Source: Singulisphaera sp. GP187 | Lineage (GTDB): Bacteria; Planctomycetota; GCA-002687715 | NCBI GenBank assembly: GCA_945907755.1 | Contig: CAMDTN010000004.1 | Location: forward strand, 20,873 to 84,872 | Direction of reading: 5' to 3' | Length of the DNA: 64,000 bases | Shown here: positions 12,236 through 44,499 of the stretch, piece by piece | Position numbering within the stretch: position 1 is the first letter of the stretch | How the letters are laid out: the number at the start of each line of letters is the position of its first letter | The notes under the pieces: model-generated | Database searches by the model: none | Told to the model about the DNA's origin: nothing | The model's input: the letters and a program-made list of their open reading frames with translations, nothing else | Position numbers and translations under genes: made by a program

Positions 12236-12251
12236 CATCGCCGGGTAACCT

Positions 12252-13640: not shown

Positions 13641-14989
13641 AAGTCCTGCTTGCAGACGACGAACGCACAATCACAGTGCCGCTACGGGACGACCTGATAG
13701 ATGCAGGACATGATGTGACCGTGGTGGATCGTGGCGATACTGCCGTCGAGAAACTAGCGGCGGATCACTACGATGTGCTGATCACAGACATCAACATGCC
13801 CGGCGTGCGTGGTGACGAACTGCTGGTGAAAGCTACCGAGTTGCGCCCAGGGATCGCCGTGGTGATTGTCACAGGCTTCGGCACGGTGCAGTCCGCCGTG
13901 CAGGCCATGAAGAATGGCGCAGCGGACTATGTGCTGAAACCATTCGTGAATGAACAGATTGTGCTGCTCCTCGGGCGTATCGCGCACTTGAACGACTTAG
14001 AGGCGGAAAACCGCAACCTCCGCCATCAGATCACCGACCTGACGGGATTCGAGCATGTGGTTGGTTCCAGCGAACAGATGCAGCAAGTGTTCCGCACCAT
14101 CCGCACCGTTGCGCCGTCCGATTCCACTGTGCTGATCATGGGTGAGACGGGCACCGGCAAGGAGATTTTCGCGCGGGCACTTCACAATCTGTCGGGGCGT
14201 TCCAGTGGCCCTTTGGTGGCGATTTCCTGTGCCGCCATTCCCAGCACCTTGCTGGAAGACGAACTCTTTGGGCACGAGAAGGGTGCTTTCACGGACGCAC
14301 GCGAACGCAAGCTCGGACGCATCGAGCGCTCCAACGGCGGCACATTCTTCTTAGATGACATCGACGACATGCCACTCGCCACGCAAGTTAAACTGCTACG
14401 CGTGTTGCAAGAGCGCGAAGTGGAGCGCTTAGGCGGCGACCGCGTGTTGCACGTGAATATCCGCGTGGTTGCTGCCACCAAAGTCGATCTGCGCAGCATG
14501 GTGCGCGACGGGCGCTTTCGCGAGGATTTGTTCTACCGTCTGAATGTGGTGCCGATTCGTTTGCCGCCGCTGCGCGAGCGCGTGGGGGACGTACCTCTCT
14601 TAGTGCGGCATTTCATGCGCAAGTTTAGCCATGGTGAAAGCTATGTCGTGAAGGCCGATGTGATGGCCATGCTGGAACGCCATCATTGGCCCGGGAATGT
14701 GCGCGAACTCGAGCACTCGGTGGAACGCGCCATTGCCATGTCTGGTCCGGAACATGTGCTGCGTCGCGAACACATGTTGGACAAGGATCCGCTGCATCCA
14801 CATTCGACACCTGCGCCCACGAATATTGATTCGTTGAAAGTTGTGCTGGAGCGTGCGGAGCGGGATGCCGTCGTTCGGGCGTTGAATCTGTGTGACAGCA
14901 AGTCGCAAGCTGCGGACGCACTTGGGATCAGCCGCAAATCGCTTTGGGACAAGTTGCGCTTGCACAGCATCGAGGACTCCAAGCCGTGA
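13637..14989 (+). CDS. Sigma-54-dependent response regulator (NtrC/AtoC family enhancer-binding protein)
   Basis: REC domain with DD pair and acceptor Asp (VLITDINMPG). AAA+ domain with Walker A GETGTGKE. The sigma-54 contact loop reads GAFTDA (canonical GAFTGA). A C-terminal Fis-type HTH (SKSQAADALGISRKSLWDKL) is present. ATGA overlap with the upstream gene. Confidence 0.93.
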   Translation: MKVLLADDERTITVPLRDDLIDAGHDVTVVDRGDTAVEKLAADHYDVLITDINMPGVRGDELLVKATELRPGIAVVIVTGFGTVQSAVQAMKNGAADYVLKPFVNEQIVLLLGRIAHLNDLEAENRNLRHQITDLTGFEHVVGSSEQMQQVFRTIRTVAPSDSTVLIMGETGTGKEIFARALHNLSGRSSGPLVAISCAAIPSTLLEDELFGHEKGAFTDARERKLGRIERSNGGTFFLDDIDDMPLATQVKLLRVLQEREVERLGGDRVLHVNIRVVAATKVDLRSMVRDGRFREDLFYRLNVVPIRLPPLRERVGDVPLLVRHFMRKFSHGESYVVKADVMAMLERHHWPGNVRELEHSVERAIAMSGPEHVLRREHMLDKDPLHPHSTPAPTNIDSLKVVLERAERDAVVRALNLCDSKSQAADALGISRKSLWDKLRLHSIEDSKP

Positions 14990-22075: not shown

Positions 22076-23551
22076 ATGTTGCGCCTTTCGCTGGCTGTGG
22101 TGTGCTTGTGCGCGCTCGTTCGTGCTGACGACATCACGCTGAAAAACGGGACCGTTCACAAAGACCTTACTTTGGTGAAGGATGGCACGAAGTCCATTGA
22201 GTTTGTCACTCTGGATGGGCGGAAGCTGAGCTTCAGTAAAGACTCCATCAAAGAGCGCATCGTCAAGGCAACGGCCTTAGACGAGTTCAAACCCAAGCGC
22301 GCCGCGCTGAATCTGAAGGACAAGGCCGCGGTCTTGACTTTGGCAGCTTGGGCCAAGGAGCAAGGCATTTCGCGCGAAGCAACGCTCTTGTTTGAAAGTG
22401 TGTTGAAGCAGGATGGCGAAGATCAGGCGGCGCGTGCAGCCTTGGGTTTCCGCAAGATTGATGGCAAGTGGATCACGGAAGCAGAAGCCGCGAAAGCTGA
22501 TGCCGTCAAGCTCGAAGCCGCCTACAAGAACCGCGGCTGGAGGAAAGTGAAGGATCGCTGGATGCGCCCGGTGGATGCTTTCCGCGCGGAAAAAGAAATG
22601 GTGCAAGTTGATGGGCATTGGGTGCTGCCTGCTGTCAAGAAGAAAATTGACGAATCCAAACTGAGCTACGCCGAAGGCGAATGGCTGAACGCCGAAGACA
22701 AGGCGCGCTTCGACCAAGGCCTGCGCAAGCAAGGCACTAAGTGGCTGCCCTTAGCAGACCTTGACACGGCCCATGCGCAATTCACCGACCCATGGAACCT
22801 GCGCAGCGAGCATGTGCACTTGGTGACAACCTTGCGCCACGAGCGCGCGATGAAAGTGTTGGCTGTCGCGGAAGATATTTACTCTGGCATGGCCGCAGTG
22901 TTTGGTGAGCACCAGGATCTCTACGACAAGCGCGGTCGCTTGCTGCTGATGATGGGACGCGGCGTGAAGGCCTATCAAACTCTTGGAGCGGGTTTCGGGG
23001 GCAGCGATCGCGAAGCGGAGCACTCTTCAAATTACGGCGTGTTCTTCAGCGCAAAGATTCTCAGCGGCGCCGCCGCCGGTTACGACAACGATGACGACGA
23101 CTGGATGCGCGTATGGGTGGGCCATGGGCTCGCGCATGCGTTCCTCGACCGCTACAAACCGGAAGAAATGCTCGATGAGCGCATGGTGGAAGCCTTTGCT
23201 GGTTACGCATCCGGACTGCACGCCGGCAGTTGGCAACCGACTTGGTGGCAATGGGCCCGTTGGTTGAAAGAGACAACCATGCCAGAAGCCACACGCATTC
23301 TCGATGTGGTCACCTACAGGGATGACAAGTCATTGGCGGCCAGCGGCTTCTTGCTGCATTATTTGCAGCGTCGGAACCCCGCTGCTTTCTCCGCGTTCTG
23401 GGAGGCCTTCGCAATGGGCCGTGGGAACGCACTGGATCTACTGACGGCCTGTGCCGGCACCAACGGCAAGCTGGACGCGAAAGCCTTGGATGCGGAATAC
23501 CAGCAGTACTTTCAAAAGGAACGGGCCACCTTCAAGCCCTGGGACAAATGA
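22076..23551 (+). CDS. Hypothetical secreted protein (491 aa)
   Basis: Signal peptide MLRLSLAVVCLCALVRADD. GGAG lies 8 nt upstream of the ATG. I recognise no domain. The C-terminal half contains WVGHGLAHAF. Confidence 0.6.
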   Translation: MLRLSLAVVCLCALVRADDITLKNGTVHKDLTLVKDGTKSIEFVTLDGRKLSFSKDSIKERIVKATALDEFKPKRAALNLKDKAAVLTLAAWAKEQGISREATLLFESVLKQDGEDQAARAALGFRKIDGKWITEAEAAKADAVKLEAAYKNRGWRKVKDRWMRPVDAFRAEKEMVQVDGHWVLPAVKKKIDESKLSYAEGEWLNAEDKARFDQGLRKQGTKWLPLADLDTAHAQFTDPWNLRSEHVHLVTTLRHERAMKVLAVAEDIYSGMAAVFGEHQDLYDKRGRLLLMMGRGVKAYQTLGAGFGGSDREAEHSSNYGVFFSAKILSGAAAGYDNDDDDWMRVWVGHGLAHAFLDRYKPEEMLDERMVEAFAGYASGLHAGSWQPTWWQWARWLKETTMPEATRILDVVTYRDDKSLAASGFLLHYLQRRNPAAFSAFWEAFAMGRGNALDLLTACAGTNGKLDAKALDAEYQQYFQKERATFKPWDK

Positions 23552-23868
23552 TGCGACGCTGCCACAAATGCGGGCAGGCTTACAAAGAGCCAGCGCAGCC
23601 AGGTTTCAACAACCTCTGCGCCTGCGGTACAGCGTTGCATGCCTGTGCCAATTGCCAGCACTATGTGCCGAAGGGCAAGCTGTGGTGCCTGAAGCCGGGG
23701 ATGCCGGAGATCCGCGATCCAGCCGCTGCCAACCGTTGTGACGGGTTTGAGTTTTGCAGCGACCACCGCGAGGGTGGTAGCGGACCAATTGGCCCACGCA
23801 CAACCGGAGGACTGGACGACGGGCCCGACGCAGCACGCAAGCGTTGGGAAGATCTGTTCCGCGAATAG
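23548..23868 (+). CDS. Cys-rich zinc-ribbon-like small protein (106 aa)
   Basis: CxxC...CxC...CxxC...C...C...C pattern (RCHKCG, CACG, CANC). ATGA overlap with the upstream gene. Confidence 0.6.
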   Translation: MMRRCHKCGQAYKEPAQPGFNNLCACGTALHACANCQHYVPKGKLWCLKPGMPEIRDPAAANRCDGFEFCSDHREGGSGPIGPRTTGGLDDGPDAARKRWEDLFRE

Positions 23869-25210: not shown

Positions 25211-26875
25211 CTATGAAATGCCGGTGCCATCGCGCAGCCAGTCGTGAAAGGCCCTGCTAGCGGCCACCAGCGGGATGCGGCGCCCTGTTCCGAAGGCCTT
25301 GGCGGACACCTTGAGCCCAGGAGCTGCCTGACGCCGCTTGTGCTCGCTGCCGGCGACCAAGCGCAGCACCTGTTCCACCAGCGCTGGTTGCAGCAATGGC
25401 GCCGCTTCAATAATCGCCCGCGCACCCATGCCGTTCTCGATGTGAAATCGCAGGATTTGATCCAGCATTTCATAGGGCGGCAAGGAATCTTGGTCGGTCT
25501 GATTTGGCCGCAACTCCGCACTCGGTGCCTTGTCGATGCTTGCGCGTGGCAGTAGTCCTTCGGCCGCGTAGCCCTCTGCAAGCGCGTACACCTCTGTCTT
25601 CCATACATCGCCGATGGGCGCGAGGCCGCCGCACATGTCGCCATAAAGCGTGCAGTATCCCGTGGCCAGTTCGGACTTATTTCCCGTCGTGACCAACATC
25701 CAGCCGGTGCTGTTGCTCATGCCCATCAGCAGTAACCCACGCACGCGGGCTTGCAGATTCTCTTGCATGAGACCGAACGGTTGCGTTCCGAGCACTCGTT
25801 CCAATCCCGATAATGCTGCGCGGTTGGTCGCGTCAATCGGTAACTCGTCGGACGGCATGCCTAAGGCCTTCGTCAGCGCACGAGCATCGGTGAGGCTCCC
25901 CTCGGAGCTAAATTCGGACGGCAACAACAACCCGCGCACGCGTTTCGGCCCGAGCGCCTCGGCACACAAACATGCGCACACCGCAGAATCGATGCCGCCG
26001 GATAGCCCCAGCAACACGCCTGGAAAGCCACACTTGTTGACATAGTCGCGGATCCCCAGCACCAACGCTGCGCGCACTTCAGCAACAGACCCCGCCACGG
26101 CGCTACTGGCCACTGTGTGGCCGAGCACAACTGCACTCGAACAGTGTGGCCCTTGCGCAATCACACTGCCGTCCGCACGCAGCACCACGGAGTTCCCATC
26201 GAAGATGAGTTCGTCGTTCCCGCCAACCAAATTGCACAATGCCACGGGCACGCCCAAGCGCAGCGCCGTGCCATGCACCAGTTCATGACGCACTGCGGGC
26301 TTGCCGCGGCTGTAAGGAGACGCGGACAGGTTGATGATCAGCTCCGCCCCAGCCGCCACAGCGCTGGCCGCCGGATCGAGGCTGTAGCGCGGCACTTCCA
26401 AGTCTTGCTGCTGCACCCACAGGTCTTCGCAAATGGTGACTCCGATTCGAGTGCCAGCCACAGTGACCACCGGGCCCTGTGGCCCGGGTTCGAAGTAACG
26501 GGCCTCGTCGAAGATGTCATAGTTCGGCAGCAGCCGCTTCTCCCACCTAGCCCGCTCTTGGCCGCCTTCCAGCAACACCGCAACATTTGAGAAAGGACGC
26601 CCTCTCCCAGTCCGAAGGGCGACCGTACCCACTATGAGTGGAATGCTGACCTCCCCCGCCAAGGCGCGCATTCTGTCTGCGGCGGCTTCGACGAATCGTC
26701 GCCTGAACAGGAGATCTCGTGGCGAGTACCCAACTAAGGCCAGCTCTGGCGTTACCGCTAACTGAGCGCCGGCAGCGGCCGCTTCATGGGCCGCGGCAAG
26801 GATGGCCGCGTAGTTCCCGTCGATGTCCCCTGGGGTCGTGTTCAGCTGCAGCAAGGCCACCCGGGAGAGGTCCAT
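25211..26875 (-). CDS. nadE: Glutamine-dependent NAD+ synthetase
   Basis: N-terminal CN-hydrolase domain (VTPELALVGY). C-terminal PP-loop synthetase domain (GLSGGIDSAV). 554 aa. Confidence 0.93.
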   Translation of the reverse strand: MDLSRVALLQLNTTPGDIDGNYAAILAAAHEAAAAGAQLAVTPELALVGYSPRDLLFRRRFVEAAADRMRALAGEVSIPLIVGTVALRTGRGRPFSNVAVLLEGGQERARWEKRLLPNYDIFDEARYFEPGPQGPVVTVAGTRIGVTICEDLWVQQQDLEVPRYSLDPAASAVAAGAELIINLSASPYSRGKPAVRHELVHGTALRLGVPVALCNLVGGNDELIFDGNSVVLRADGSVIAQGPHCSSAVVLGHTVASSAVAGSVAEVRAALVLGIRDYVNKCGFPGVLLGLSGGIDSAVCACLCAEALGPKRVRGLLLPSEFSSEGSLTDARALTKALGMPSDELPIDATNRAALSGLERVLGTQPFGLMQENLQARVRGLLLMGMSNSTGWMLVTTGNKSELATGYCTLYGDMCGGLAPIGDVWKTEVYALAEGYAAEGLLPRASIDKAPSAELRPNQTDQDSLPPYEMLDQILRFHIENGMGARAIIEAAPLLQPALVEQVLRLVAGSEHKRRQAAPGLKVSAKAFGTGRRIPLVAASRAFHDWLRDGTGIS

Positions 26876-26923
26876 TCGGGCTCAGCATAGGTGCAGCGGG
26901 CCTCTCAACCAGCCTCGCAAAAC

Positions 26924-26959
26924 GTTACCGTTCGGTAACAAGTGCGCGTTTCGGTAACA
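26924..26959. promoter_or_regulatory. Candidate protein-binding site: 16-bp palindrome plus a third half-site
   Basis: GTTACCG-TT-CGGTAAC at 26924-26939. TTCGGTAACA is repeated exactly at 26931-26940 and 26950-26959. The site is 49 bp upstream of the nadE start and about 165-180 bp upstream of the sigma-54 promoter at 27104. Confidence 0.45.
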
Positions 26960-27103
26960 CTTTCCAACTTGAAAACGGCCTCACGCGACTACCCACAAGT
27001 GTCAGGAAAAGTAATCTGAACGGCCATAAATAGCATTGGCGCAATGGGATGCAGCAGACTCGCTCTCATTTATCAAGTTTTTCGGCCCCAATTTGACCCC
27101 ATT

Positions 27104-27119
27104 TGGTACGGGACTTGCT
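27104..27119 (+). promoter_or_regulatory. Sigma-54 (-24/-12) promoter
   Basis: TGGTACGGGACTTGCT versus the consensus TGGCACG-N4-TTGCW, with one mismatch and exact GG-N10-GC spacing. It is intergenic, 66 nt upstream of ATG 27185. Confidence 0.6.
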
Positions 27120-27184
27120 TACATACCCCTCGCTGGAACTCACACCCTGTGAAAGAACCAGCGAACCACACGGAGATGATGAAC

Positions 27185-29122
27185 ATGCGCAAGACAGTGT
27201 TTGCAGCGGCGACGGTCCTCGCTCTCGCGATGATCGCCGAAATCGCGCTCGCCCACGGCGGCACCTATCAGGGCCCCGCAGGCGGCGGCACCCCGGGCTA
27301 TAGCGGCCCAATTGGGGGTGGAACCATTGGACCTCAGCCAGGTGGCACAACGCCTCCCTCGACGGGTGGCGCAACGCCGCCTCCCGCGGGTGGCGCAACG
27401 CCGCCCCCGAGCTCGGCACCCACGCCTCGCCCTGCGGCTCGCGGCACCGGCCCTGCCGGTGGTCGTGGCTTCGGCGGCTCCACGGGTGGCCGCGCGAAGG
27501 CCAAGGTCGAAGACCGCACCACCGATTGGGATTGGTGGTGGGATCTGAACGAAGAGCGCTTCTTGATGCTCAAGAACAAAGTTCGTTCACAGGAAGCCAG
27601 CTCGGATAACAAGGACACCTTCCTCGGTGGTTCCTTGGGCGGCGGTGCCTCTAAGGTGACCACCACTCAGATCCGCAAGGACATCCTCCCCAGCTTGCGT
27701 CTCGCACTGAAGGACCCCTACTACGACGCACGTGCAGGTGCCGTGATCGCGTTGGGCAAGGTCGGCGACAAGACGATGCCTGAAACCCTGAACGACCTCC
27801 GTGCGATGCTTGCTGACAAGGACAAAATCGTCCAAGAGTCCGCGTGCCTCGCGTTGGGCGTGCTCGGCAACAAGGAATCCTTGGCGGACCTGCTCGATGT
27901 AGCCAAGAACACCAAGACTGGCCAGAAGCTCGCAGGCAAGGAGGGCGCTGAAGTCCCGACTCGCATGCGCTCTTTCGCCGCTGTGTCCATCGGCCTGATC
28001 GGTGGCCGTGAAGGCTTCGGCGCTGGCGAGAACTACATCAAGGAACTGGTGACCATGGCTACCACCAAGGCCCCCAACCAAGATCTCCAGGTTGGCCCCG
28101 CGGTGGCGCTGCAAGTTGCGAAGTCGCAAGAAGCGGTGCCGGCGCTGATCGCCATGTACAAGGATGAAGATTTGGATAAGTGGGTGCGCGCACACGCCGG
28201 TGTGGCTCTGGGCAAGATTGGTGCCAAGGCCGCGATTCCTGAGCTGGTGAAGGGTTTGGATGACAAGGAGGGCTTCGTTGCCAACTCCGCCGCCATCTCC
28301 CTCGGCCTGCTCACGGACCCCAGCGACCGCGAGACCATCAACAAGCTCATCCGCTACGCCAAGAGCGCTCCTGAGCGTTCGACGCGCAACTTCTGCATGA
28401 TCGCGCTGGGCGAAATCGGCGATGCCAAGGGCAAGGCTCTCCTTCTGGAGAACCTGAGCAAGGGGCAAATGCACGATCGCACCTTCTCCGCACTGGCCCT
28501 CGGCATCATGGGCAACAAGTTCGAAGAAGGCCGCAGCGAATCCGGTCAGGCGCTGCTCGCGACCTACAAGGATCTGAAGAGCGACCAAGAGAAGTCGGCC
28601 ATGGCCATCGCCCTCGCATTGTGCGAGTACGAACCGGCCCGTGCTGCGCTGGCAGAAGACCTCGTGAAGGGTCAGGGCAACCAAGACCTGAAGGGTCACC
28701 TCTGCACCGCGCTGGGTCTGCTGAACCATGCGGACAGCATCCCCGCGATCCAGGAGCTGGCACGCCAGAAGGGCGACCAAGATCTGCGCAAGCGCGCTTC
28801 CATCGCACTCGGCCTGTTGAAGGACCCGGATGCAGTGGATGTGCTTGAGAAGGTCATTCGCGAGTCTGGCGCCAGCAAGGCGATCCTCGGCGCAGCCACT
28901 GTGGCCCTCGGCTACATCGGCGACCGCCGCGCTGTGCCTATCCTCGTCGCCATGGTCGAGAACAAGGCTGGTGAAGTGCAGGACGTGTCCCGCGCTTTCG
29001 CCACGGTTGCTCTCGGCTTCCTCGGTGACAAGGACGACATCCCATGCTTGTCCAAGATTCAGGAGAACTCCAACTACCTCGCTCAAACCGAGGCGTTGGC
29101 TGAGCTCTTGACCATCCTCTAG
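27185..29122 (+). CDS. Exported HEAT-repeat protein 1 (signal peptide, Gly/Pro-rich linker, Trp-rich motif, about 12 HEAT-like repeats)
   Basis: Signal peptide MRKTVFAAATVLALAMIAEIALA. The ATG is 9 nt after GGAG. A low-complexity GGTPG/TPPP region is followed by DWDWWWDLNEERF. Repeated A..ALG.iGd..a.p.L units (PBS-lyase HEAT-like) follow. Confidence 0.8.
   Translation: MRKTVFAAATVLALAMIAEIALAHGGTYQGPAGGGTPGYSGPIGGGTIGPQPGGTTPPSTGGATPPPAGGATPPPSSAPTPRPAARGTGPAGGRGFGGSTGGRAKAKVEDRTTDWDWWWDLNEERFLMLKNKVRSQEASSDNKDTFLGGSLGGGASKVTTTQIRKDILPSLRLALKDPYYDARAGAVIALGKVGDKTMPETLNDLRAMLADKDKIVQESACLALGVLGNKESLADLLDVAKNTKTGQKLAGKEGAEVPTRMRSFAAVSIGLIGGREGFGAGENYIKELVTMATTKAPNQDLQVGPAVALQVAKSQEAVPALIAMYKDEDLDKWVRAHAGVALGKIGAKAAIPELVKGLDDKEGFVANSAAISLGLLTDPSDRETINKLIRYAKSAPERSTRNFCMIALGEIGDAKGKALLLENLSKGQMHDRTFSALALGIMGNKFEEGRSESGQALLATYKDLKSDQEKSAMAIALALCEYEPARAALAEDLVKGQGNQDLKGHLCTALGLLNHADSIPAIQELARQKGDQDLRKRASIALGLLKDPDAVDVLEKVIRESGASKAILGAATVALGYIGDRRAVPILVAMVENKAGEVQDVSRAFATVALGFLGDKDDIPCLSKIQENSNYLAQTEALAELLTIL
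27364..27411 (+). repeat. Tandem 24-nt duplication inside the low-complexity linker of HEAT protein 1
   Basis: GGGTGGCGCAACGCCGCCTCCCGC followed by GGGTGGCGCAACGCCGCCCCCGAG. This encodes (T/A)GGATPPP twice. Confidence 0.85.
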
Positions 29123-29129
29123 TTCGGTC

Positions 29130-31022
29130 ATGAGCACCACACGGCATCCAACTGCAGCAATGCTCGGTTGGGTGCCGTGCTTCATTTTTCTGGTGACAAC
29201 GGCGCTGCTGCCAACAGTGTGCGCGCAAGATCCCTTTGGTTCGGCCTTCGGTGTTGCGTCTGGGTCTGGTTCCTATTCGGCACCGCCGGGCACTGCCCCG
29301 CCAATGGGCCAAGTCGATCCCGTGGGCGAACCCACAGACCCTGCGGCACCTGGAAGTGGCGCTGCAAGCGGAGCCCCTGTCGGCAAGACAAAATTTGGTG
29401 TGGCCGGCCGCGCGCGCGCGCGCTCGACTGCGCGCACGCCCACATGGCAACTGTGGTGGGGCATGAATGGCGAGCATTGGTTGCGCTCGCGTTCGCTCAC
29501 GCGTCAGCACGGGCTGGCTGGCTCCGTAGATGCTGCATTTTCCGCACTGCCGCGTTTCGAACCCATCGGACAGTCCCGCGCGCGCCGCGAGATTGTGCCG
29601 TTCCTCTTGCAACAACTGAACGCCGAATCACCAGCCATGCGCGCCTCCACGGTGATCGCGCTCGGGCGCATCTGCACTCACAAAGACAGCGCCGTGCAAT
29701 CGCGCGTGCGTTTGATGTTGACCGATCCCCAGTTGGATGTGCGTGCCGCGTGCCTCTTGGCGCTTGGTTTCATCGGATCAGAAGCGACGCTTCCAGAACT
29801 CATGGCCGTTGCGTTAGACGCCCCCTTCGGGCGCATGCTGCTGCACCAAAACAGAGAGATCCCAAATCAGTTGCGCTCGGTCGCGTGCATCGCACTGGGC
29901 ATGGTGTGCGCACGCAGCGGCAGCCCTTTGGCGACGAGTGCCACCCAGATGTTGCTGCGCATTGCTGCTGGCAACGAGCCTTCCGGAGACCTGAGAGGTT
30001 CCGCCATCTTGGCACTGGCTTTGTATTCGCCGCACAGTGCAGTGCCGCGGCTGATCGCGCTTGCGGGCGACACGGAACTCGAGCAGTCCTTGCGGGCTCA
30101 TGCCCTCACGACGCTGGGGCGCATCGGGGACCCGGCAGCAATCAAGCCTGTCGTTGCTGCTTTGCAGGATGAGCGCGGCCTCGTAGTCGCTGCTGCTGCA
30201 ACAGCTCTCGGCTTCCTCTGCAAACCTGACGATGACACTTCCTTAGCTGCGCTGCGCGCTGTAGCTGAAGGCAACGGCGACCGCCTCGCTGTGTCCGCCG
30301 CGATTCTCGCGTTGGGTGAATGTGGGCCAGCAGACACGCGCGAATTCTTGATGCAATTGCTGCAAGCTGATGCTCCATTCACCAGTGCTCACGCGGCACT
30401 CGCGTTGGGCGTGCATTGCAAGCGCTTGCCTCATGCGGCAACGGCCAGCGCCCTCACGGCAGCGTGGAACCGGTGCTCGAACTTGCAAGAAAAAGGCGCA
30501 TTCGGTGTGGCCTTGGCTATGGCGAAAGCTCCGGATGCAGCGCGGCTACTTGAAGCAGAGCTCAGCGCACGCTCTGTCGATCGTGAACTCGCAGCGTTTT
30601 TGAGCACAGCCTTAGGGATGCTGGGCGACCGACGCAGCGCCTTGGCTTTGCTGCCATGGATTTCACAAACCCGCGATCTGCACATGCGCGTGCGCGCCAC
30701 GCAAGGCGCGCTGATGCTGCACAGCGAGGAAGCTGTGCCGTTGTTGATTCAATTGCTGCCTGCAAGCCGCTCGTCCCAGGGATCATTCACCGCGACAGTG
30801 CATGCGCTGGGACTTAGCAGCGATGCGCGCGCGCTGCCCCCGTTGATCCAAGGTGCCGTCGATGAATCTGGCACGCTGCCCGAACTGTCCCGCGCAGCAG
30901 CCGTAGCTGCCTTGGGGATATTGGCTGACAAGGACCACGACTCGTTGCTGCTGGGTTTGCGCCGTGGGGCGCTGTATGGCGCGACAGGCGGCGCGTTGTC
31001 AGCACTGCTCAGAGTGCAGTAG
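29130..31022 (+). CDS. Exported HEAT-repeat protein 2 (paralogue of 27185-29122)
   Basis: Same architecture as protein 1: signal peptide (MLGWVPCFIFLVTTALLPTVCAQ), low-complexity region, Trp motif TWQLWWGMNGEHW, HEAT-like repeats and a similar C-terminal end. It starts 7 nt after the upstream stop. ATG 29160 is an alternative start. Confidence 0.78.
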   Translation: MSTTRHPTAAMLGWVPCFIFLVTTALLPTVCAQDPFGSAFGVASGSGSYSAPPGTAPPMGQVDPVGEPTDPAAPGSGAASGAPVGKTKFGVAGRARARSTARTPTWQLWWGMNGEHWLRSRSLTRQHGLAGSVDAAFSALPRFEPIGQSRARREIVPFLLQQLNAESPAMRASTVIALGRICTHKDSAVQSRVRLMLTDPQLDVRAACLLALGFIGSEATLPELMAVALDAPFGRMLLHQNREIPNQLRSVACIALGMVCARSGSPLATSATQMLLRIAAGNEPSGDLRGSAILALALYSPHSAVPRLIALAGDTELEQSLRAHALTTLGRIGDPAAIKPVVAALQDERGLVVAAAATALGFLCKPDDDTSLAALRAVAEGNGDRLAVSAAILALGECGPADTREFLMQLLQADAPFTSAHAALALGVHCKRLPHAATASALTAAWNRCSNLQEKGAFGVALAMAKAPDAARLLEAELSARSVDRELAAFLSTALGMLGDRRSALALLPWISQTRDLHMRVRATQGALMLHSEEAVPLLIQLLPASRSSQGSFTATVHALGLSSDARALPPLIQGAVDESGTLPELSRAAAVAALGILADKDHDSLLLGLRRGALYGATGGALSALLRVQ

Positions 31023-31554
31023 GCACTTTGCCGGCACGCCACAGTAGCCAGGCCACGCTGCAGGCGGCGCAAATGCCAAGCAACAAAGTCCATAGTTGTG
31101 CGTGATGCGCTTCTTCCATGCGTTGCTGCAGAGCGTTGGCTTGGGCCCACGCAGCACGGCGCAAGTCACCAGCTTGCGAGAAGGCCAGCAGCGCACCTTT
31201 GCGCTCGAAGCTCAACAGCAGCAAGTCGCCTTCCAGTGCGCGCAAGGCAGCCGCATTCGGGTCGGCATGCAGCAGAAGCTGAGCATCCGCCATGGCAGGC
31301 CCGAGCAGCTTCATCTCACTGAGCGCGACGGCGCGCCAGTAGCGCACAACTGGATCATCGGTGACCAGCACCTCACTCGCCTGCTGCACGAAGCCGCGCA
31401 GCCCAGCACTGCTCTCACGAAACTCTTGCAGCGCCCGCTGCAGCACCGACGAGCGCTGGCCGTTGTCCTGCACTCCCGCAAGCCGCTCTTGCAGACTCAC
31501 TTGGCCCGGCAACAGCGCCGCAACGACCCACAACGCAAGCAGACAACGCCGCAT
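31009..31554 (-). CDS. Hypothetical protein with signal peptide and C-terminal TM anchor
   Basis: Start at MRRCLLALWVVAALLPGQV. C-terminal TM LWTLLLGICAACSVAWLLW. The ATG is 1 nt after the upstream stop. Confidence 0.55.
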   Translation of the reverse strand: MRRCLLALWVVAALLPGQVSLQERLAGVQDNGQRSSVLQRALQEFRESSAGLRGFVQQASEVLVTDDPVVRYWRAVALSEMKLLGPAMADAQLLLHADPNAAALRALEGDLLLLSFERKGALLAFSQAGDLRRAAWAQANALQQRMEEAHHAQLWTLLLGICAACSVAWLLWRAGKVPTAL

Positions 31555-31555
31555 G

Positions 31556-33103
31556 TCAGCGTTCCCTCGCGAGCTGTTCGAGTGGCGCGAGATCATCGGT
31601 CAGAACCCGTGCGGTAGAGGCGGCGGACGGTGTCCAACGCACGCCGCGCGCGCTAATCAACACCGATTGCAGAACTGCGGGCGCGGCCAGCGGCAGCATG
31701 TTGCGCCCTGGCTCCACTGAGCAGAGCAAGATCACGCTCCAAGCGCCAGGCACACTGATGGCTTCGATGCTCGCAAACTGTTCCTGCAGCGTGGCCAGCA
31801 GCGCACGCATCAATGGCGATTCCAGATCCTGCGTGCTGACATTCACTGCGCAGAGGCCCATCGGCGCCAAATGACTGCGTGCCAGTTCGAGAAACTCGCG
31901 TGTGAAGAGATGCGCCGGAATGGCCAGTTGGCGTGCAAAGGCATCCAATACGATCAAATCGAAACGCTGATCCAACGCCGCAAGGCAGCGGCGCGCGTCG
32001 GCGGCAAGCACACGATCACAGGGCGCTGTTGGTGTGCCCATCGCTGTTGCAACTGCGCTGACAGCCGGGTCCAGTTCTACCGAAGTGATGGCACCCAAGC
32101 GCGCTCCAGCGGTGCTGCGCAGCAAGTGCGTCAATGTGCCTGCGCCTCCGCCCAAAATCAAAGTCTGCGGTTGTGTGCGCTGTTCGCATGCTGTCAAGGC
32201 AGCAAGGGCGAGCGTGTCGTAGTACTGGCCCGTGAGTGCTTGGCCTTCGACGCGCAGCGAATGAAACTCCCCGAGTCCCTCATCCAGTGCGAGCCGCAGT
32301 TCTGTTCTTCCTTGGTCAGTGCGCACGCGGGACAAGTGCAGGTGCTGGTAATCCGATTCTTGCAGCAGCAGGCGCTCGATTTCGACATCGTCAGTTCCAT
32401 CCGCAGGCCATGCGCGCGCATCGGGCCCCGCTGCGGCATTCATGAAAAGCCCAGCAAGCACGAATAGACAGAGTGCGATCCCACGCCATGATCCACGAGT
32501 CAGCAACAGCACTACTAACGCGTAGCACACGGCCGCACAGCTCAGCACACCGCGCGGTCCGAGGGCATGAAGCGCTGCACCATTCACTGCAAACACAGCC
32601 AGCAGTCCTCCACAGGTAGAAGCCGTCAGCAGAGCACCGAGCGACTGCTTTCCATACGACACCAACAAGGGTGTCAACGCGCTCATGCACATCACTGGAG
32701 TGGCCAACACCGACAATGAAAGCGCCAGACTGCCGAGGGTGAGCGCGCTGCGTGCTTCCGGCGGCGTGCTGCCCACGGGCAACACGAGGCCTTCCGCAAT
32801 CCAAGGAACGAGCAGTGCGCCAAGCACCAAGGTCACGCATGCGCCCCCGCCGACCAGAACAGCACGTGCCCGCAATTGACCGCACCGCGTCATGCGTCCG
32901 CCCAGCAGTGCGCCAGCGGCACCAGCAGCAAGCAGCACGGCGATGACGTTGCTCCAGACCGGTGCTGAAGTGCCGAACCAAGGGGCGAACGCGCGCACCG
33001 CTGTGATTTCTGTGCCTAACCAGCCCGCACCGCAAAGAAACGCTGCGCCCAGCGCCGTGTGCCGGCTGATCCCTGCCTCGCTTTGTGCAGCAGCGTCACT
33101 CAC
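31556..33103 (-). CDS. Membrane-fused spermidine-synthase-like protein (polytopic N-terminal domain plus SAM-fold aminopropyltransferase-like domain)
   Basis: About 6 hydrophobic helices, then LILGGGAGTLTHLL, VELDPAV and DLIVLDAF, which resemble SpeE motifs. The start is uncertain: GTG 33103 lies 10 nt after the upstream stop, while the ORF-track start 33280 would overlap the upstream gene by 167 nt. Confidence 0.7.
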   Translation of the reverse strand: MSDAAAQSEAGISRHTALGAAFLCGAGWLGTEITAVRAFAPWFGTSAPVWSNVIAVLLAAGAAGALLGGRMTRCGQLRARAVLVGGGACVTLVLGALLVPWIAEGLVLPVGSTPPEARSALTLGSLALSLSVLATPVMCMSALTPLLVSYGKQSLGALLTASTCGGLLAVFAVNGAALHALGPRGVLSCAAVCYALVVLLLTRGSWRGIALCLFVLAGLFMNAAAGPDARAWPADGTDDVEIERLLLQESDYQHLHLSRVRTDQGRTELRLALDEGLGEFHSLRVEGQALTGQYYDTLALAALTACEQRTQPQTLILGGGAGTLTHLLRSTAGARLGAITSVELDPAVSAVATAMGTPTAPCDRVLAADARRCLAALDQRFDLIVLDAFARQLAIPAHLFTREFLELARSHLAPMGLCAVNVSTQDLESPLMRALLATLQEQFASIEAISVPGAWSVILLCSVEPGRNMLPLAAPAVLQSVLISARGVRWTPSAASTARVLTDDLAPLEQLARER

Positions 33104-33113
33104 GCCGCTGCTA

Positions 33114-34547
33114 TTAGCCGCCACTCTTGGGCGCTTCGGGCTGTTCGGGCGCGGGAACGGTGATGCGCAACTCACCCACGACCATAGCGCTCGGGTCAGT
33201 GGGGTTGTCGTCGGAGAACCCCAGCATGTAATCAAGGCTGCGCTCAACCTTGGCTTCAAGAACTTCCTTGTCGTTGACAAATACCTTCACCGGCTTGTCC
33301 AAATCCAGCATGCGGTCGTTCAGATACAAACGGCATGCCTGTAGGTTCTGGCTCTTAATGCGTACGGCGTTGGCAGCACGGTCCAATTCAGCGGACACGA
33401 CCACGCTGAGCCCGGCTTCTTTGTCAGCATCACCGCGATCGATCACCAACCACGCAGTACGGCGATAACGGCTGAGGTCGTCAGTGACATACGCGAGGGA
33501 ATCAGGGAAGGGTTTACGCTGCCGCGCCGCAAAGAAAGCAAGTATCTCAGCACTAGCGTCGACCACAGGGTCCACCTTCTGCGAACCTAACGCTGCCTTG
33601 ACTTTACCGGGATCTAACGCCGGAAACGTCTTCAACTCGAGGTCTAATGCATTCGCGGCCTTCAGGGCATCCAACTGGGTGCGCAGCGTCTTGCCGTCCT
33701 CGGATGCGAACAATTGATCCTCGCGGCTCACGATCATAATGCCCGCTTGGCTCTTCAAGTTCACCAAAAAGTTCTGCGCTTTGGGGCTCGCATTGCGCAC
33801 CGCCACCGCCGCAAACAATTTTGGTTGCAGCGACGCGAGGTCCAATCCTGCACGGCCCCCTTCACCGCAGCCTTCCAAGAAGATTCGAGTGGTGTCGATG
33901 TTGCAGAGCTTCAGCGCTTCGCTGATGCACTTGGCGATGCCGAAGTAATGCACCGGCCCATACCAGTCCACGCGCATTTGGTCGCTGGCTTTCTTGCCCA
34001 CGGTGCGCTCACCGATGGATGGAGCGATGATCACAAACTGGTCGCGCAGCTCGCGCAGTTCTTTGTCGTTGCGCAGCAAGACTTCGTTCAGGTACTTCTC
34101 GCCGTTGCTGCCTTTGTCGTGGAGCGCAACAATCAAAGGCCAAGTCTTACGGCCGTCATACAGCGGCGGCACATACAAAGTGAAATCGAAACCGATTTCC
34201 TTGCCGCGCTCTGCATGGTCCGCACGCAGATTGCGCGCGCGCCCGCAGCCGTCAGGTTTCTGCACTTTGCCCTTTGCATTCACCCGCGCAAATACGTCCA
34301 CCCAAGAATCCACATGGCGCAGGATGTCTTCGCCCTTGTGGGCCTCGCGCACTTTTTCGATGGCGAGCTTCTGGGCGTCACGGGCCTTGTCCAAGGCCTT
34401 CTCTGCTTTTGCCCCAACCCCACCCTTGGCACCGCGCACATCGCTCACAACCCCAGCCAACGTCTCACGCTCCGCTTCGGTCAACCCGGGCTGCTGCGCG
34501 CACACGACGGGCAACAACATGACCAAACACAACATCGCGATTTTCAT
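33114..34547 (-). CDS. Secreted alpha/beta-hydrolase-like protein (esterase/PHB-depolymerase fold) apparently lacking the nucleophile Ser
   Basis: Signal peptide MKIAMLCLVMLLPVVCAQQ. YVPPLYDGRKTWPLIVALHDKGSNG resembles esterase N-terminal motifs. The nucleophile elbow reads FLEGCGEGG (Gly where GxSxGG has Ser). A C-terminal extension of about 200 aa follows. Confidence 0.55.
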   Translation of the reverse strand: MKIAMLCLVMLLPVVCAQQPGLTEAERETLAGVVSDVRGAKGGVGAKAEKALDKARDAQKLAIEKVREAHKGEDILRHVDSWVDVFARVNAKGKVQKPDGCGRARNLRADHAERGKEIGFDFTLYVPPLYDGRKTWPLIVALHDKGSNGEKYLNEVLLRNDKELRELRDQFVIIAPSIGERTVGKKASDQMRVDWYGPVHYFGIAKCISEALKLCNIDTTRIFLEGCGEGGRAGLDLASLQPKLFAAVAVRNASPKAQNFLVNLKSQAGIMIVSREDQLFASEDGKTLRTQLDALKAANALDLELKTFPALDPGKVKAALGSQKVDPVVDASAEILAFFAARQRKPFPDSLAYVTDDLSRYRRTAWLVIDRGDADKEAGLSVVVSAELDRAANAVRIKSQNLQACRLYLNDRMLDLDKPVKVFVNDKEVLEAKVERSLDYMLGFSDDNPTDPSAMVVGELRITVPAPEQPEAPKSGG

Positions 34548-34641
34548 GAGTGGTTCCGAGAGCGGCACGCACGATTCGTGCGTCCGCAAGTGGATGGTAC
34601 GGGGGCGGCTTCTGCGCCGTCAACCGCGGTGGTGCGGAGCG

Positions 34642-41862: not shown

Positions 41863-43275
41863 TCAGCCTTCCTTGCGCGCGGCGAGATCCAACAAACGCA
41901 ACTGCTGTTCACACAGTGTCGGAAACCGCTTGTGCGCTTGCAGCACCGCTGCGCGCGCTTCGGATCCATCGATGGCACCGAGCACCCCGATCAAGAACGC
42001 AGCGCGTGCTTCGTCGGATGTAGCGCTCAATCGTTGGGCAACGGCGGGCACCATCGTGCTGTTGTTGCCGCTGCAAACAGGCGCAATTTGCCCAGGGTGC
42101 GAGAGGGTGCTGTCTAACAGCGCCGCGAATAGTGCATCCGTGGGCACCCCGCCTCGTGCGGCCAATCCGCTCACCACGGCTTCAGCATCACCGGGCCGGT
42201 GCTCTGCAACCAGCGCGCCTACTCTCTCGATGTCAGATGCGTTGCCAGCCGCCGCAATCACTTGGAGTGCCAAGAGTCTCTTCGTGCTCGCCGGGGCCCC
42301 AGAGGTCAGCCCCTCGCGTGCATGCTGCAACACCTCCGCGTCGCCAAGCAGCGCTAGTGTGCTCAGGACCAGCCCTTCGAGGCTTGGCGGCACCTCACCG
42401 CGGAATTGACGGAGCCGTGGGATGTAGCTGCTGAGCCGCAAGTCGACCATCGCTTCTAAGGCTGCATGCAGCTCTGGCATCAAGCGCGCATCTAGCCCTT
42501 GGGCGTAAAACCCGTCAGGTGCTGGGCGGCCGAGGCGGCCAAGAGCGTGCGCAGCGCGAACGCGAACGCCTAACTCTTCATCCTGTAGCAATTCCACCAA
42601 CCGTGGCAGGAATGACTTCAATTGCAGCCTCGCGACATAATCAATCGCGTCGGCGCGCACGGTCGCAATGGAGTCCTTTAAGGCTCGATCGAGAATCAAC
42701 GGCGTTTCAGGCCCACCGCAGGCCAGCGCCGCATCCAAGATGATCAAACGCGTTTGCGTCCCCGCATTGGGATGGTCGCGGTTGATCTCGTCATAAAACT
42801 TGCACAGCAGTGGAACGAATGCAGGATCGCGCTGAGTGCGCGCAACAATCGGGCCCTTTGAGCGCACTTCGAAGTCTGGGTGCTGGAAGATCTCTTTGCT
42901 TGGGCCGACAAAATCAGCGCTGCGCACCAGGGCAAATATGTCCGCGAAGGCGCTCGCTTCGTACTTCGAAATGTTGGTTCGCCCTGCCCACGCGTTCAAC
43001 ACAGCGCGACGGGTCGATTCCTCGTTGCACAGCAGTGCGATGTCGTCCTTCATGCCACCAATCAGTCCGGCTGCGCCGGACGTGAGCTGATCGAGGCACT
43101 GCTGCACCGCGCGCTGGCGCTCGGCCGGAGCGGCAAACAAATGAAATGACGGCGTGCGGCCGCTCGGTAGTGTTCGAACTGGCGGAGCCTCGGGTTCGCC
43201 GCGAAAAGCGAGGAATGCGTAAGCCAGCCCAATGGCTACCAAGATGACCAGCAAGATGCGCGCGAGTTGTGGCAT
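41863..43275 (-). CDS. Membrane-anchored HEAT-like repeat protein
   Basis: N-terminal TM ILLVILVAIGLAYAFLAF. HEAT-like units such as LQDEELGVRVRAAHALGRLG. It starts 3 nt after the upstream stop. Confidence 0.65.
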   Translation of the reverse strand: MPQLARILLVILVAIGLAYAFLAFRGEPEAPPVRTLPSGRTPSFHLFAAPAERQRAVQQCLDQLTSGAAGLIGGMKDDIALLCNEESTRRAVLNAWAGRTNISKYEASAFADIFALVRSADFVGPSKEIFQHPDFEVRSKGPIVARTQRDPAFVPLLCKFYDEINRDHPNAGTQTRLIILDAALACGGPETPLILDRALKDSIATVRADAIDYVARLQLKSFLPRLVELLQDEELGVRVRAAHALGRLGRPAPDGFYAQGLDARLMPELHAALEAMVDLRLSSYIPRLRQFRGEVPPSLEGLVLSTLALLGDAEVLQHAREGLTSGAPASTKRLLALQVIAAAGNASDIERVGALVAEHRPGDAEAVVSGLAARGGVPTDALFAALLDSTLSHPGQIAPVCSGNNSTMVPAVAQRLSATSDEARAAFLIGVLGAIDGSEARAAVLQAHKRFPTLCEQQLRLLDLAARKEG

Positions 43276-43278
43276 CGC

Positions 43279-44499
43279 TCACCCTCCTCGTTGTGCGTTG
43301 CGTGCAGCGCGCCGCAGCGCTTCGACGCTCAGGAATGCAGGCGTCAATAGTCGATTGAGCAGTTCCACGCGGGCATTCTCCTCCGGCAGCAAGCGCATCT
43401 GAGCGAGCACTCGTTCGAGGACTTCGCGGCCTCTCAAGCCATCCACGCGCGCAATGGCTGTCAAGGTGGCGTCGAGAATATCGCGTTGCGGCAACAGCGC
43501 CACAAGTGCATCCAGACTTTCTGGGCCCGCCAGTTTGCCCACAGCTTCAACGCGTGCGCTGCGTTCAGCGCGCTCAGCGCTTGCCGGAATGTCCAGTAAT
43601 TTCGCGACGCTCGCTTCGCTGCCAAGGTCGCCTAGCAAAAGCGCGGATTCTTGACGGAGGTGCCCAGCCGTAGCCCCGAGCAGTGCCTCCAATGCCGAGC
43701 GTCCGCGAGCCGCGAAGCGCGCTGCAAATGCGCCCAAGAACTCTGGCTGCCTTGATGCGTGCGCGCGCAAAGTGCGCTCTAAGAGCCGCACCCAAGCGTC
43801 GCGCTCGTCACCTTCCTTGACTGTAGTTTCTGTTCCGTAGCAGACACCCAACACGCTCTTGCGAATACGCTGCGACAAAGCCGTTGCAATGTGGCGGTCT
43901 TCGAGCGGCAAAGATGCCCCGGCCCGATGGACGGTGCCTGCGTCTTCCCACTGCAGGCAGACCGCGTTCATCTCGCTCAGTCGGCACAACTCGCGAAGTC
44001 CTGCTCGCTGTGCGAAAGTCGAAGTGGAGCGCACGCCGCTGAGGGAAAGTTCGCGCAGAGTTTCGTGGAGCTGCGGACCGTTGGGCTGCGCCGCAAGGCG
44101 CAGGGTGCTTTCGACCAGCACTGGTCCGATCACTGAATCGTCAGCAGTGAGATCGATCAAGTCCACTGCTGCGAAAACACTCGACTTCGGATCGCCCTTG
44201 AGGAACAGCAGCTTGGACAATTCTGGGTACGCGGCGCCGCGCGTGCCCAAGCCGCCCACGCGCACTTCACTCAGCTTGCCGCCCTTGAAACAGCGCTCGA
44301 CCTTGAAGACAGTCAACTGAACACTGGCGGACACCAGGCGATCGCTTACCCAGCGCCCCTGCACGATGACATCGGAGCGGTCGAGCAGCGCTCCGCACAG
44401 CCAAGGCTTGGTTTGGCCCCATGCGGCTACGACACAACAAAGCAGCATTATGCAAACCCGCATGAGAGGCCATTCTATGCCTCCCAACCGGCTCGCCAC
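43279..44499 (-). CDS. Hypothetical secreted protein with a C-terminal alpha-helical (HEAT-like) region
   Basis: Signal peptide MRVCIMLLCCVVAAWGQ. The start is GTG 44499 or ATG 44463. I recognise no domain. Confidence 0.55.
   Translation of the reverse strand: MASRLGGIEWPLMRVCIMLLCCVVAAWGQTKPWLCGALLDRSDVIVQGRWVSDRLVSASVQLTVFKVERCFKGGKLSEVRVGGLGTRGAAYPELSKLLFLKGDPKSSVFAAVDLIDLTADDSVIGPVLVESTLRLAAQPNGPQLHETLRELSLSGVRSTSTFAQRAGLRELCRLSEMNAVCLQWEDAGTVHRAGASLPLEDRHIATALSQRIRKSVLGVCYGTETTVKEGDERDAWVRLLERTLRAHASRQPEFLGAFAARFAARGRSALEALLGATAGHLRQESALLLGDLGSEASVAKLLDIPASAERAERSARVEAVGKLAGPESLDALVALLPQRDILDATLTAIARVDGLRGREVLERVLAQMRLLPEENARVELLNRLLTPAFLSVEALRRAARNAQRGG

Follow-up and report, generated by a model that had tools for sequence, protein, structure and literature searches.

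We analysed a 64,000-nt stretch of DNA from Singulisphaera sp. GP187 (contig CAMDTN010000004.1; G+C content about 61%), termed the window in the following, and focused on two adjacent genes for HEAT-repeat proteins, A and B. Protein A belongs to a large protein family that is almost confined to Planctomycetota, and that joins a predicted signal peptide, a predicted mature N-terminus with histidine as residue 1 (the His1 head), a disordered tether and a helix with a tryptophan motif (the Trp helix) to a HEAT alpha-solenoid. This N-terminal module on a HEAT solenoid is undescribed in the libraries and papers that were searched. We consider it quite possible, and propose tentatively, that the tethered His1 head is the working part of an exported solenoid and binds a metal or a partner. 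A preliminary description of the window had pointed out the gene pair, its linker and its Trp motif; the most conserved feature, the predicted mature HGGxYxGP head, went unnoticed there. A near-invariant residue that becomes the very first of the mature protein, in front of a tether whose length is constrained, would be an unusual and directly testable design.

Gene A codes for a signal peptide, the His1 motif, a Gly/Pro tether, the Trp helix and the HEAT solenoid, in this order. The two genes and the parts of A are located as follows:

27185–29122, + strand: gene A, 645 aa, canonical family member; the ATG lies 10 nt past a GGAG
27185–27253, + strand: predicted Sec signal peptide of A, residues 1–23, ending ...EIALA before the H
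27254–27298, + strand: predicted mature N-terminus of A, HGGTYQGPAGGGTPG (His1 motif)
27299–27511, + strand: Gly/Pro/Thr-rich disordered tether of A, predicted local distance difference test (pLDDT) below 50
27512–27604, + strand: basic patch and Trp motif helices of A (DWDWWWDLNEERFLMLKNKV...)
27662–29119, + strand: HEAT alpha-solenoid of A (phycobilisome (PBS)-lyase type), delimited by the AlphaFold2 (AF2) model and conserved columns
29130–31022, + strand: gene B, 630 aa, a paralogue that evolves fast and has no His motif

The leaders of 205 of the 215 members with a complete N-terminus end in a classic signal peptidase I (SPase I) site that is followed by the His motif. Position −1 is Ala in 158 and Gly in 37 of these 205 members, and A, S, L or V occupies position −3. 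Cleavage by signal peptidase would thus leave the histidine as residue 1. The family consensus for the head is H-G-G-x-[Y/F]-x-G-P-x-[G/D]-x-V-P-P, and the head of the dominant subfamily reads HGGTYRGPGDTVPPGG. In the numbering of A, conservation reaches 90% or more at H24, G25, G26, G30 and P31, and Y28 does not vary in the 16-sequence subset. When 125 further full-length cluster representatives at 50% identity were inspected, a His after a small residue was present in 105 and the canonical head in 87, compared to 205/215 for His1 in the sampled members; His1 is lacking in B and in some tandem copies. Rare head variants have D-H-C in place of HGG (P0051, P0053, P0055, P0057, P0058) or C-G-G (P0054). 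Among the complete sequences available, about five truly lack the His, which is too few to relate its loss to that of the C-terminal N-Y. All 122 occurrences of HGGxYxGP in about 1 Mb of fetched DNA, a sample biased to family loci, were in family genes. A general sorting tag was rejected as an explanation of the motif on this count, which is weak evidence given the bias of the sample.

The tether consists mainly of G (36%), P (22%) and T (11%). The distance from the His to the first Trp is 70–103 residues in 303 of 309 distinct sequences, with a median of 78. Since this range is narrow despite the low-complexity composition, the length of the tether is under constraint. In two independent AF2 runs, one for A and one for a homologue from Engelhardtia, the head had pLDDT values of 32–40 (about 35 for A), and docking of the head on its own solenoid was not predicted with multiple sequence alignments of 117 and 122 sequences. 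The head, undocked and of low pLDDT, appears free to act in trans.

The second conserved element is the Trp motif. W115, W118, W119 and N122 of A are invariant or nearly so in the family, and 116 of 120 homologues match the pattern W..WW..N, as do 122 of 125 full-length cluster representatives. The AF2 model of A places two helices here (115–127 and 129–140, pLDDT about 86–91), and the Trp helix of the Engelhardtia homologue reaches pLDDT 87–95; in both proteins the flanks are disordered. On a helical wheel read from the sequence logo, W115, W118, W119 and N122 share one face with an aromatic residue at +11 and a Leu at +14. A confident helix between disordered flanks suggests that the Trp helix is packed against the solenoid and may, for instance, cap its N-terminal end. 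The Trp helix is more universal in the family than His1: the Trp motif occurs in 98% of the representatives at 50% identity, while the His is lacking in about 15% of them, which implies that the solenoid and the Trp helix can function without the His.

A and B lie on the same strand, 7 nt apart, and share 31% identity over about 600 collinear residues (BLASTP, E = 5e-69), in an alignment that spans the linker, the Trp motif and the C-terminus. Both exceed the Pfam gathering scores for HEAT_2 (A, 153.4 bits and 2e-45; B, 119.7 bits; cut-off 27.7) and HEAT_PBS (A, 68.4 bits and 1.8e-19; B, 36.1 bits; cut-off 20.9), and the Pfam scan gave no further match for either protein. In NCBIfam the two proteins matched only NblB, CpcE and CpeY, all far under cut-off. 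The AF2 model of A, based on an alignment of 117 sequences, had a pLDDT of 85 and a predicted TM-score (pTM) of 0.82. It contains a signal-peptide helix, then disorder at residues 19–99, and at residues 160–614, with pLDDT above 90, 27 helices that form about 13 hairpins. The C-terminal end of the solenoid is conserved (R603, N630-Y631 and L-x-I-L). Sequence searches of the PDB and Foldseek searches returned only generic solenoids (alphaRep, Rpn1/2, karyopherins, PP2A-A), the best Foldseek TMq being 0.42, to Rpn2. No match was found in Rfam for positions 26000–32000, and a scan for promoters and terminators gave nothing that exceeded chance. These data bear out two statements of the preliminary description, namely that A and B are a collinear paralogous pair 7 nt apart, and that both are predicted exported HEAT-repeat proteins with signal peptides. 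Searches of Pfam, NCBIfam, PDB, Foldseek and the literature yielded no characterised relative, in line with its remark that no function is known for exported HEAT solenoids of this layout.

A protein search retrieved 450 homologues, nearly all of 600–720 aa. They derive from metagenome-assembled genomes (MAGs) of Planctomycetota, and any name that they carry is limited to "HEAT repeat (domain-containing) protein". In a set of species-representative genomes, a degenerate DNA pattern for W..WW..N.[DE]..L.LK matched at least 120 loci, and about 114 of those listed were genuine family genes. All of the family loci listed were from Planctomycetota, with the exception of one contig that is probably mis-binned. 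A profile search of representatives of clusters at 50% identity had 150 of them among the matches listed, all with E at or below 1e-144 and nearly all single and full-length. The family is therefore large and almost confined to Planctomycetota. Cultured carriers are Rohdeia mirabilis Pla163, found by the DNA pattern scan, and Engelhardtia mirabilis, in which a search with the Rohdeia protein found two copies; the proposals made below can thus be tested.

The public annotation of the Rohdeia mirabilis member (NZ_CP036290, locus L057, protein P0150) starts 147 residues late, so that the annotated 578 aa, instead of about 725 real ones, lack everything from the signal peptide through the His head and the tether to a portion of the Trp region. 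The N-terminal module is not covered by any model in Pfam or NCBIfam. A profile search with the module alone returned only fragments of the same family, but its low-complexity words swamped the filter, so that this search says little about other architectures. Our literature search found no paper on the family or on periplasmic HEAT proteins in Planctomycetes, and nothing on the Saltatorellus clade or on a fused MFS/spermidine synthase.

Unequal copies and variable copy number

The preliminary description had presented A and B as a pair. The nearest relative of the window is locus L123, which has the same gene order, and a comparison of orthologues between the two gave very different values for A and B. 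Identity was 89% for rpsA, 85% for A, 70% for tyrS, 68% for DHOase, 65% for dxr, 64% for nadE, 60% for ino1 and 40% for B; seven housekeeping enzymes of the region were in the range of 59–70%. By this measure, few genes of the region are as constrained as A, and few as little constrained as B. In this genome the family is nearly as conserved as ribosomal protein S1, yet databases say only "HEAT repeat protein".

Codon usage differed as well. A has the strongest bias of the 25 genes in the window (effective number of codons, ENC, 37.4; G+C content at third codon positions, GC3, 0.76; ENC of the others 41.5–53.6), in agreement with the earlier statement that its codons resemble those of highly expressed genes; the ENC of B is 46.5. 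Codon bias together with conservation points to A being an abundant protein. A is also rich in Lys (7–8% K), as are two further predicted exported proteins of the window, encoded at 22076–23551 (+) and 33114–34589 (−), while most other genes of the window have 1–3% K and 6–10% R. B contains only 1.4% K even though it is predicted to be exported.

The N-terminus of B deviates from that of A. Its signal peptide ends ...VCA before QDPFG, it reads ASGSGSY where A has AHGGTY, and its Trp motif is degenerate (TWQLWWGMNGEHWL). B and its orthologue in L123 have a common leader end, AQDPFGxAxGVASG; neither has the His, and the Trp motif is degenerate in both. Their branches in a neighbour-joining tree are about sixfold longer than the A branches. 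The assumption that Trp motif and linker are conserved in orthologues is thus confirmed by the family counts and tether lengths given above, and fails for the Trp motif of B.

The number of copies varies between loci. Locus L001 has a single family copy, and the candidate for a B orthologue there was rejected, since the gene after A is unrelated to B. L124 contains two canonical copies and a 241-aa fragment, L127 two family copies, and several MAGs two or three. In Engelhardtia mirabilis (CP036287; locus L125, 10001–19432) four family genes follow sdhCAB in tandem, and canonical (AHGGTYRGPGDTVPP) and divergent (HGA.. or QHGQH..) N-termini alternate among them. According to the neighbour-joining tree, tandem copies are mostly lineage-specific duplicates. 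With one to four tandem copies per locus, the family is not built on pairs.

A convergent cluster of predicted envelope genes

Downstream of B, four genes are located on the opposite strand:

31009–31596, − strand: small protein, 195 aa, with predicted signal peptide and C-terminal hydrophobic segment; convergent with B, 14-nt overlap
31556–33280, − strand: protein with seven transmembrane segments (7-TM) and a spermidine-synthase (SpdS) fold; NF037959, 154.7 bits (cut-off 40)
33114–34589, − strand: predicted secreted alpha/beta-hydrolase-like protein, 491 aa
34642–36168, − strand: predicted secreted TPR protein, 508 aa; Pfam TPR_16, TPR_14, TPR_19

All four products carry predicted export or membrane signals. 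The small protein has no family match in Pfam or NCBIfam; an open reading frame (ORF) of similar size fills this slot in most linked loci, and the counterpart in L127 shows faint TPR similarity. The true start of the 7-TM gene is probably near 33110, since the ORF as listed overlaps the upstream gene by 166 nt. The hydrolase-like protein gave sub-threshold matches to polyhydroxyalkanoate depolymerases and esterases, and a further match to LC-Est1C (2.4e-7). At the expected nucleophile elbow it reads G-C-G-E-G (G-T-G-E-S-G in L043), with no clear G-x-S-x-G, and it may be a non-catalytic or unusual alpha/beta-hydrolase. The TPR gene is the first gene of the convergent cluster in the clade of the window, and has the same position in L001, L123, L124 and L127.

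For a survey of the neighbourhoods, all ORFs from 120-odd loci were clustered. Of the 53 loci with 2 kb or more of downstream sequence, 26 have a gene for an NF037959 protein (named "fused MFS/spermidine synthase") there on the opposite strand. The hydrolase-like gene was seen in 17 of the 32 loci for which the downstream sequence extends to 4 kb or more, always together with the 7-TM gene. The gap from the HEAT gene to the NF037959 gene is rigid (470–700 nt) and contains a small ORF on the NF037959 strand. The cluster is kept across clades whose HEAT proteins are only about 30% identical and whose other flank has changed: this flank is nadE/ino1 in the clade of the window and sdhCAB in the dominant clade, which includes Engelhardtia. 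In Engelhardtia (L125) the 7-TM/SpdS-fold and hydrolase-like genes are convergent downstream of the tandem array. Other clades are devoid of the cluster, among them the L002 clade and the DHC clade.

These patterns can be read in two ways. The HEAT protein may work together with the products of the convergent envelope cluster, i.e., the 7-TM/SpdS-fold, hydrolase-like and TPR proteins. Alternatively, the gene order may simply have been inherited, with no bearing on function, and the HEAT proteins may act alone, which we rate as possible and short of probable. The convergent orientation, the missing neighbour at half of the loci and the other neighbours found in the DHC and L002 clades would be in line with mere inheritance, and according to the NCBIfam description NF037959 proteins occur well outside the HEAT family. 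This view has to account for a cluster with rigid spacing that survives a complete change of the other flank and a drift of both the HEAT and the 7-TM proteins to about 30% identity. A linkage below 100% is to be expected in any case, since genomes carry several family loci.

The 7-TM protein deserves a closer look. Seven hydrophobic segments stand out when 28 homologues are aligned, and the mean number of Lys plus Arg per loop alternates (2.5, 1.0, 3.1, 1.1, 2.3, 0.7, 2.0). By the positive-inside rule, this predicts an N-terminus inside the cell and a periplasmic soluble domain of about 300 residues. The relatives of this domain in the PDB are SpdS and the C-terminal domain of METTL13, which is the N-terminal methyltransferase of eEF1A. 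The GxG(D/E)G motif, which reads GGGDG in SpdS 6qmm, GGGEG in 1uir and GLGGG in METTL13, is GGGAG in the window, and the D/E position is A, G, S or T, never acidic, in 28 of 28 homologues. E402, D404, D428 and D446, which comprise the ribose-binding acid and other cofactor residues, are invariant. A function as spermidine synthase was rejected, since the motif is never acidic and the scores for speE are low (TIGR00417, 19 versus a cut-off of 249.55; PRK00811, 31.7 versus 260).

A similar architecture is known from the fungal enzyme NHMT (AN4663), a protein of 558 aa with a 7-TM domain (1–215) and a soluble SpdS-like, METTL13-like domain, in which Ile replaces D/E and E340 binds S-adenosylmethionine (SAM) (PMC10349129). 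NHMT methylates His1 of secreted lytic polysaccharide monooxygenases (LPMOs) once the signal peptide has been removed, and its authors found the 7-TM domain only in Pezizomycotina (PMC10349129). Like NHMT, the neighbour of the HEAT genes has an N-terminal 7-TM part and a SpdS-fold domain in about 550 aa, a non-acidic residue at the D/E position of GxG(D/E)G, and a conserved SAM-binding acid. As NHMT acts on secreted His1 proteins, it also fits that the 7-TM gene adjoins genes for predicted His1 proteins. Unlike the fungal gene it is bacterial, it is convergent with the HEAT genes and not co-transcribed with them, and the likeness is one of architecture and published description, not of comparison with the AN4663 sequence. 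No bacterial NHMT was reported in the literature that we searched. Bacteria are not known to supply SAM to the periplasm.

By analogy, the 7-TM protein might methylate or otherwise modify the N-terminal His or the alpha-amine of the HEAT proteins after cleavage of the signal peptide, as a bacterial counterpart of the methylation of His1 in fungal LPMOs. The result would be a protected Cu/Ni hook on a tether with a contour length of about 25 nm. We regard this as a speculative and rather unlikely scenario. If it were true, the HEAT proteins would form a new class of histidine-brace-like metalloproteins on an alpha-solenoid, and the 7-TM protein would be the first bacterial enzyme that modifies an N-terminal histidine. 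A modification of the head by the 7-TM/SpdS-fold protein would make it the first bacterial NHMT analogue, and would raise the question how SAM reaches the periplasm.

The DHC subfamily (locus L126, P0058), which has the head A-D-H-C-x-x-Y-R-G-P, is surrounded by other genes. L126 has a divergent gene for a 389-aa thioredoxin/AhpC-like protein and convergent genes for a DHOR-like di-haem protein, a Rieske protein and a porin. Upstream there are genes for an extracytoplasmic function (ECF) sigma factor and a zf-HC2 anti-sigma factor with HEAT repeats.

The proposed role of the His1 head and its rivals

In the reading that we favour, A would be an abundant, strongly constrained alpha-solenoid that is exported by the Sec system and is probably located in the periplasm. 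SPase I would cut after ...A-x-A and expose H-G-G-x-Y-x-G-P...V-P-P as a free N-terminus. The head would hang on a Gly/Pro tether of about 70–100 residues, which would be fixed to the solenoid by the W-x-x-W-W-x-x-N helix. As the working part, the His1 head would be a tethered hook for the chelation of a transition metal, via its N-terminal amine and its imidazole, for recognition by a partner, or for both, and the solenoid would serve as the binding platform. B would be a fast-evolving derivative without the head, probably an accessory or partner subunit.

We propose a role of the His1 head because the invariance of the His is specific to position +1, and because there is a precedent of metal chelators with His1. 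An invariant His right after the signal peptide predicts a metal site regardless of the fold, and four bacterial classes bind Cu or Ni (PMC12537917). The His predicted at +1 is what the HEAT family shares with known His1 metalloproteins (the LPMO histidine brace, CopC, YcnI, DUF4198, DUF6702 and the Ang-1/Ang-2 "anglerases"; PMC12537917). Anglerases have a flexible linker between the part that captures the metal and a further module (PMC12537917). The known proteins, however, carry His1 on a folded beta-sandwich that provides further ligands, whereas in the HEAT family His1 heads a disordered tether of 70–100 residues and metal binding is only proposed. If the His1 head does bind a metal, the concept of the histidine brace, which stems from beta-sandwich enzymes, would also cover a disordered tether carried by a solenoid.

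Several observations weigh against this proposal. The head has one conserved candidate for a strong ligand (His1, perhaps with Tyr5 and Asp10), and no second His, Met or Cys is conserved, while most periplasmic Cu proteins do conserve further His/Met/Cys ligands. A metal site would need fewer than the 15 residues that are conserved in the head, a length that speaks rather for a protein as the recognising partner. The His is absent in about 15% of the representatives and the Trp motif present in 98%, as described above. Half of the loci have no 7-TM neighbour, and the orientation of the genes is convergent, not operonic. Two AF2 runs on monomers gave no docking signal that would hint at a partner site. 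The arguments from codon bias and conservation for a high abundance of A are indirect.

The main rival is a pure scaffold, in which the HGGxYRGPGDTVPP head would dock on a component of the outer membrane or the wall, or on another solenoid, so that head-to-tail or A–B contacts build a periplasmic matrix free of metal. A head of about 15 conserved, Pro/Gly-rich residues looks like a docking motif, and HEAT and ARM solenoids commonly bind extended peptides. A scaffold would also suit the tandem arrays of one to four paralogues, in which canonical and divergent copies alternate. High conservation and codon bias are in line with a structural protein, and the constrained tether suggests a spacer. 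AF2, on the other hand, did not dock the head on its own solenoid, a result that concerns the intramolecular case only. A docking motif, moreover, needs no invariant residue exactly at +1, and His-to-Cys-type variants are more typical of ligand chemistry. We consider the pure scaffold somewhat unlikely. A docking scaffold and a metal role of the head are not mutually exclusive.

A tether of the TonB/TolA type is improbable in our view. The signal sequence would then be an uncleaved anchor with HGG at the membrane, the Pro/Gly stretch would span the periplasm, and the solenoid would reach the wall or the outer membrane. TonB and TolA indeed have the same order of an N-terminal hydrophobic segment or helix, a Pro-rich spacer (in the HEAT family a Pro/Gly spacer of fixed length) and a folded C-terminal domain, and one fragment of the family is named "transmembrane domain-containing protein" by NCBI. 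The leaders, however, have the signature of SPase I cleavage and not of an anchor, with A or G at −1 in 195 of 205 members and A/S/L/V at −3, and their hydrophobic core after the K/R n-region is short (about 12–15 residues). Neither a TonB/TolA C-terminal domain (Pfam, NCBIfam) nor neighbouring genes for partners of the ExbB/D or TolQ/R type were seen.

The least credible alternative, which we rate as very improbable, is an only seemingly exported HEAT protein of the PBS-lyase/NblB type, i.e., a lyase or chaperone for tetrapyrroles or bilins, or of the type of the di-iron deoxyhypusine hydroxylase (DOHH). The best NCBIfam matches are indeed NblB (1.4e-19), CpcE and CpeY, and the PDB matches include the phycocyanobilin lyase subunit 5n3u and the deoxyhypusine hydroxylase 4d4z. 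The equivalog scores, however, are below cut-off (NF058502, 70.5 versus 300; NF045915, 62.8 versus 330; NF058505, 49.1 versus 600), as expected from a shared repeat consensus, and the hosts are non-phototrophic Planctomycetota whose proteins have signal peptides. The family consensus has no conserved His-Glu pair of the DOHH type: E218 is conserved without a preceding His, and the match to 4d4z covers only the repeats. What A and B share with PBS-lyase-type HEAT proteins (PF13646, PF03130; CpcE/F, NblB, E. coli YibA and the designed alphaRep) is the repeat consensus and the alpha-solenoid fold, and the matches to them in the sequence and Foldseek searches were the strongest. Those proteins are cytoplasmic and shorter, and have neither a signal peptide and His1 head nor the tether and the Trp helix. 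A and B thus belong to the HEAT/PBS-lyase repeat class by both of its defining features, and are not CpcE/NblB equivalogs, DOHH-like or TonB/TolA-like.

Further genes of the window

The preliminary description had also suggested that the pair may form an envelope scaffold or sensor system together with a "second operon", which probably corresponds to the following genes:

41863–43275, − strand: 470 aa, N-terminal hydrophobic segment, weak HEAT_2 matches
43279–44499, − strand: 406 aa, signal-peptide-like start, no Pfam match

An envelope system as such is plausible, since all products of the neighbour cluster carry export or membrane signals. A link to the second operon (41863–44499) found no support: its similarity to A is generic HEAT similarity (E = 0.002), and the His and Trp modules are in neither of the two proteins.

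Some other genes of the region were noted in passing. At 23548–23868 (+), a 106-aa Cys-rich ORF (MMRRCHKCGQ...CACG...CANCQH) is zinc-ribbon-like with no family match, and ORFs of 108, 105 and 81 aa have the same position in L001, L123 and L124. In the interval from the conserved upstream genes to ino1, L001 (3970–5523) and L124 (3947–5521) contain genes for a HEAT_2 plus VWA protein and a deoxyhypusine-synthase-like protein, neither of which occurs in the window or in L123. Positions 9286–14989 (+) of the window code for two GT2 glycosyltransferases, a FemAB/GNAT-like protein, an FAD-linked oxidase and a sigma-54-dependent response regulator, which are unrelated to the HEAT pair.

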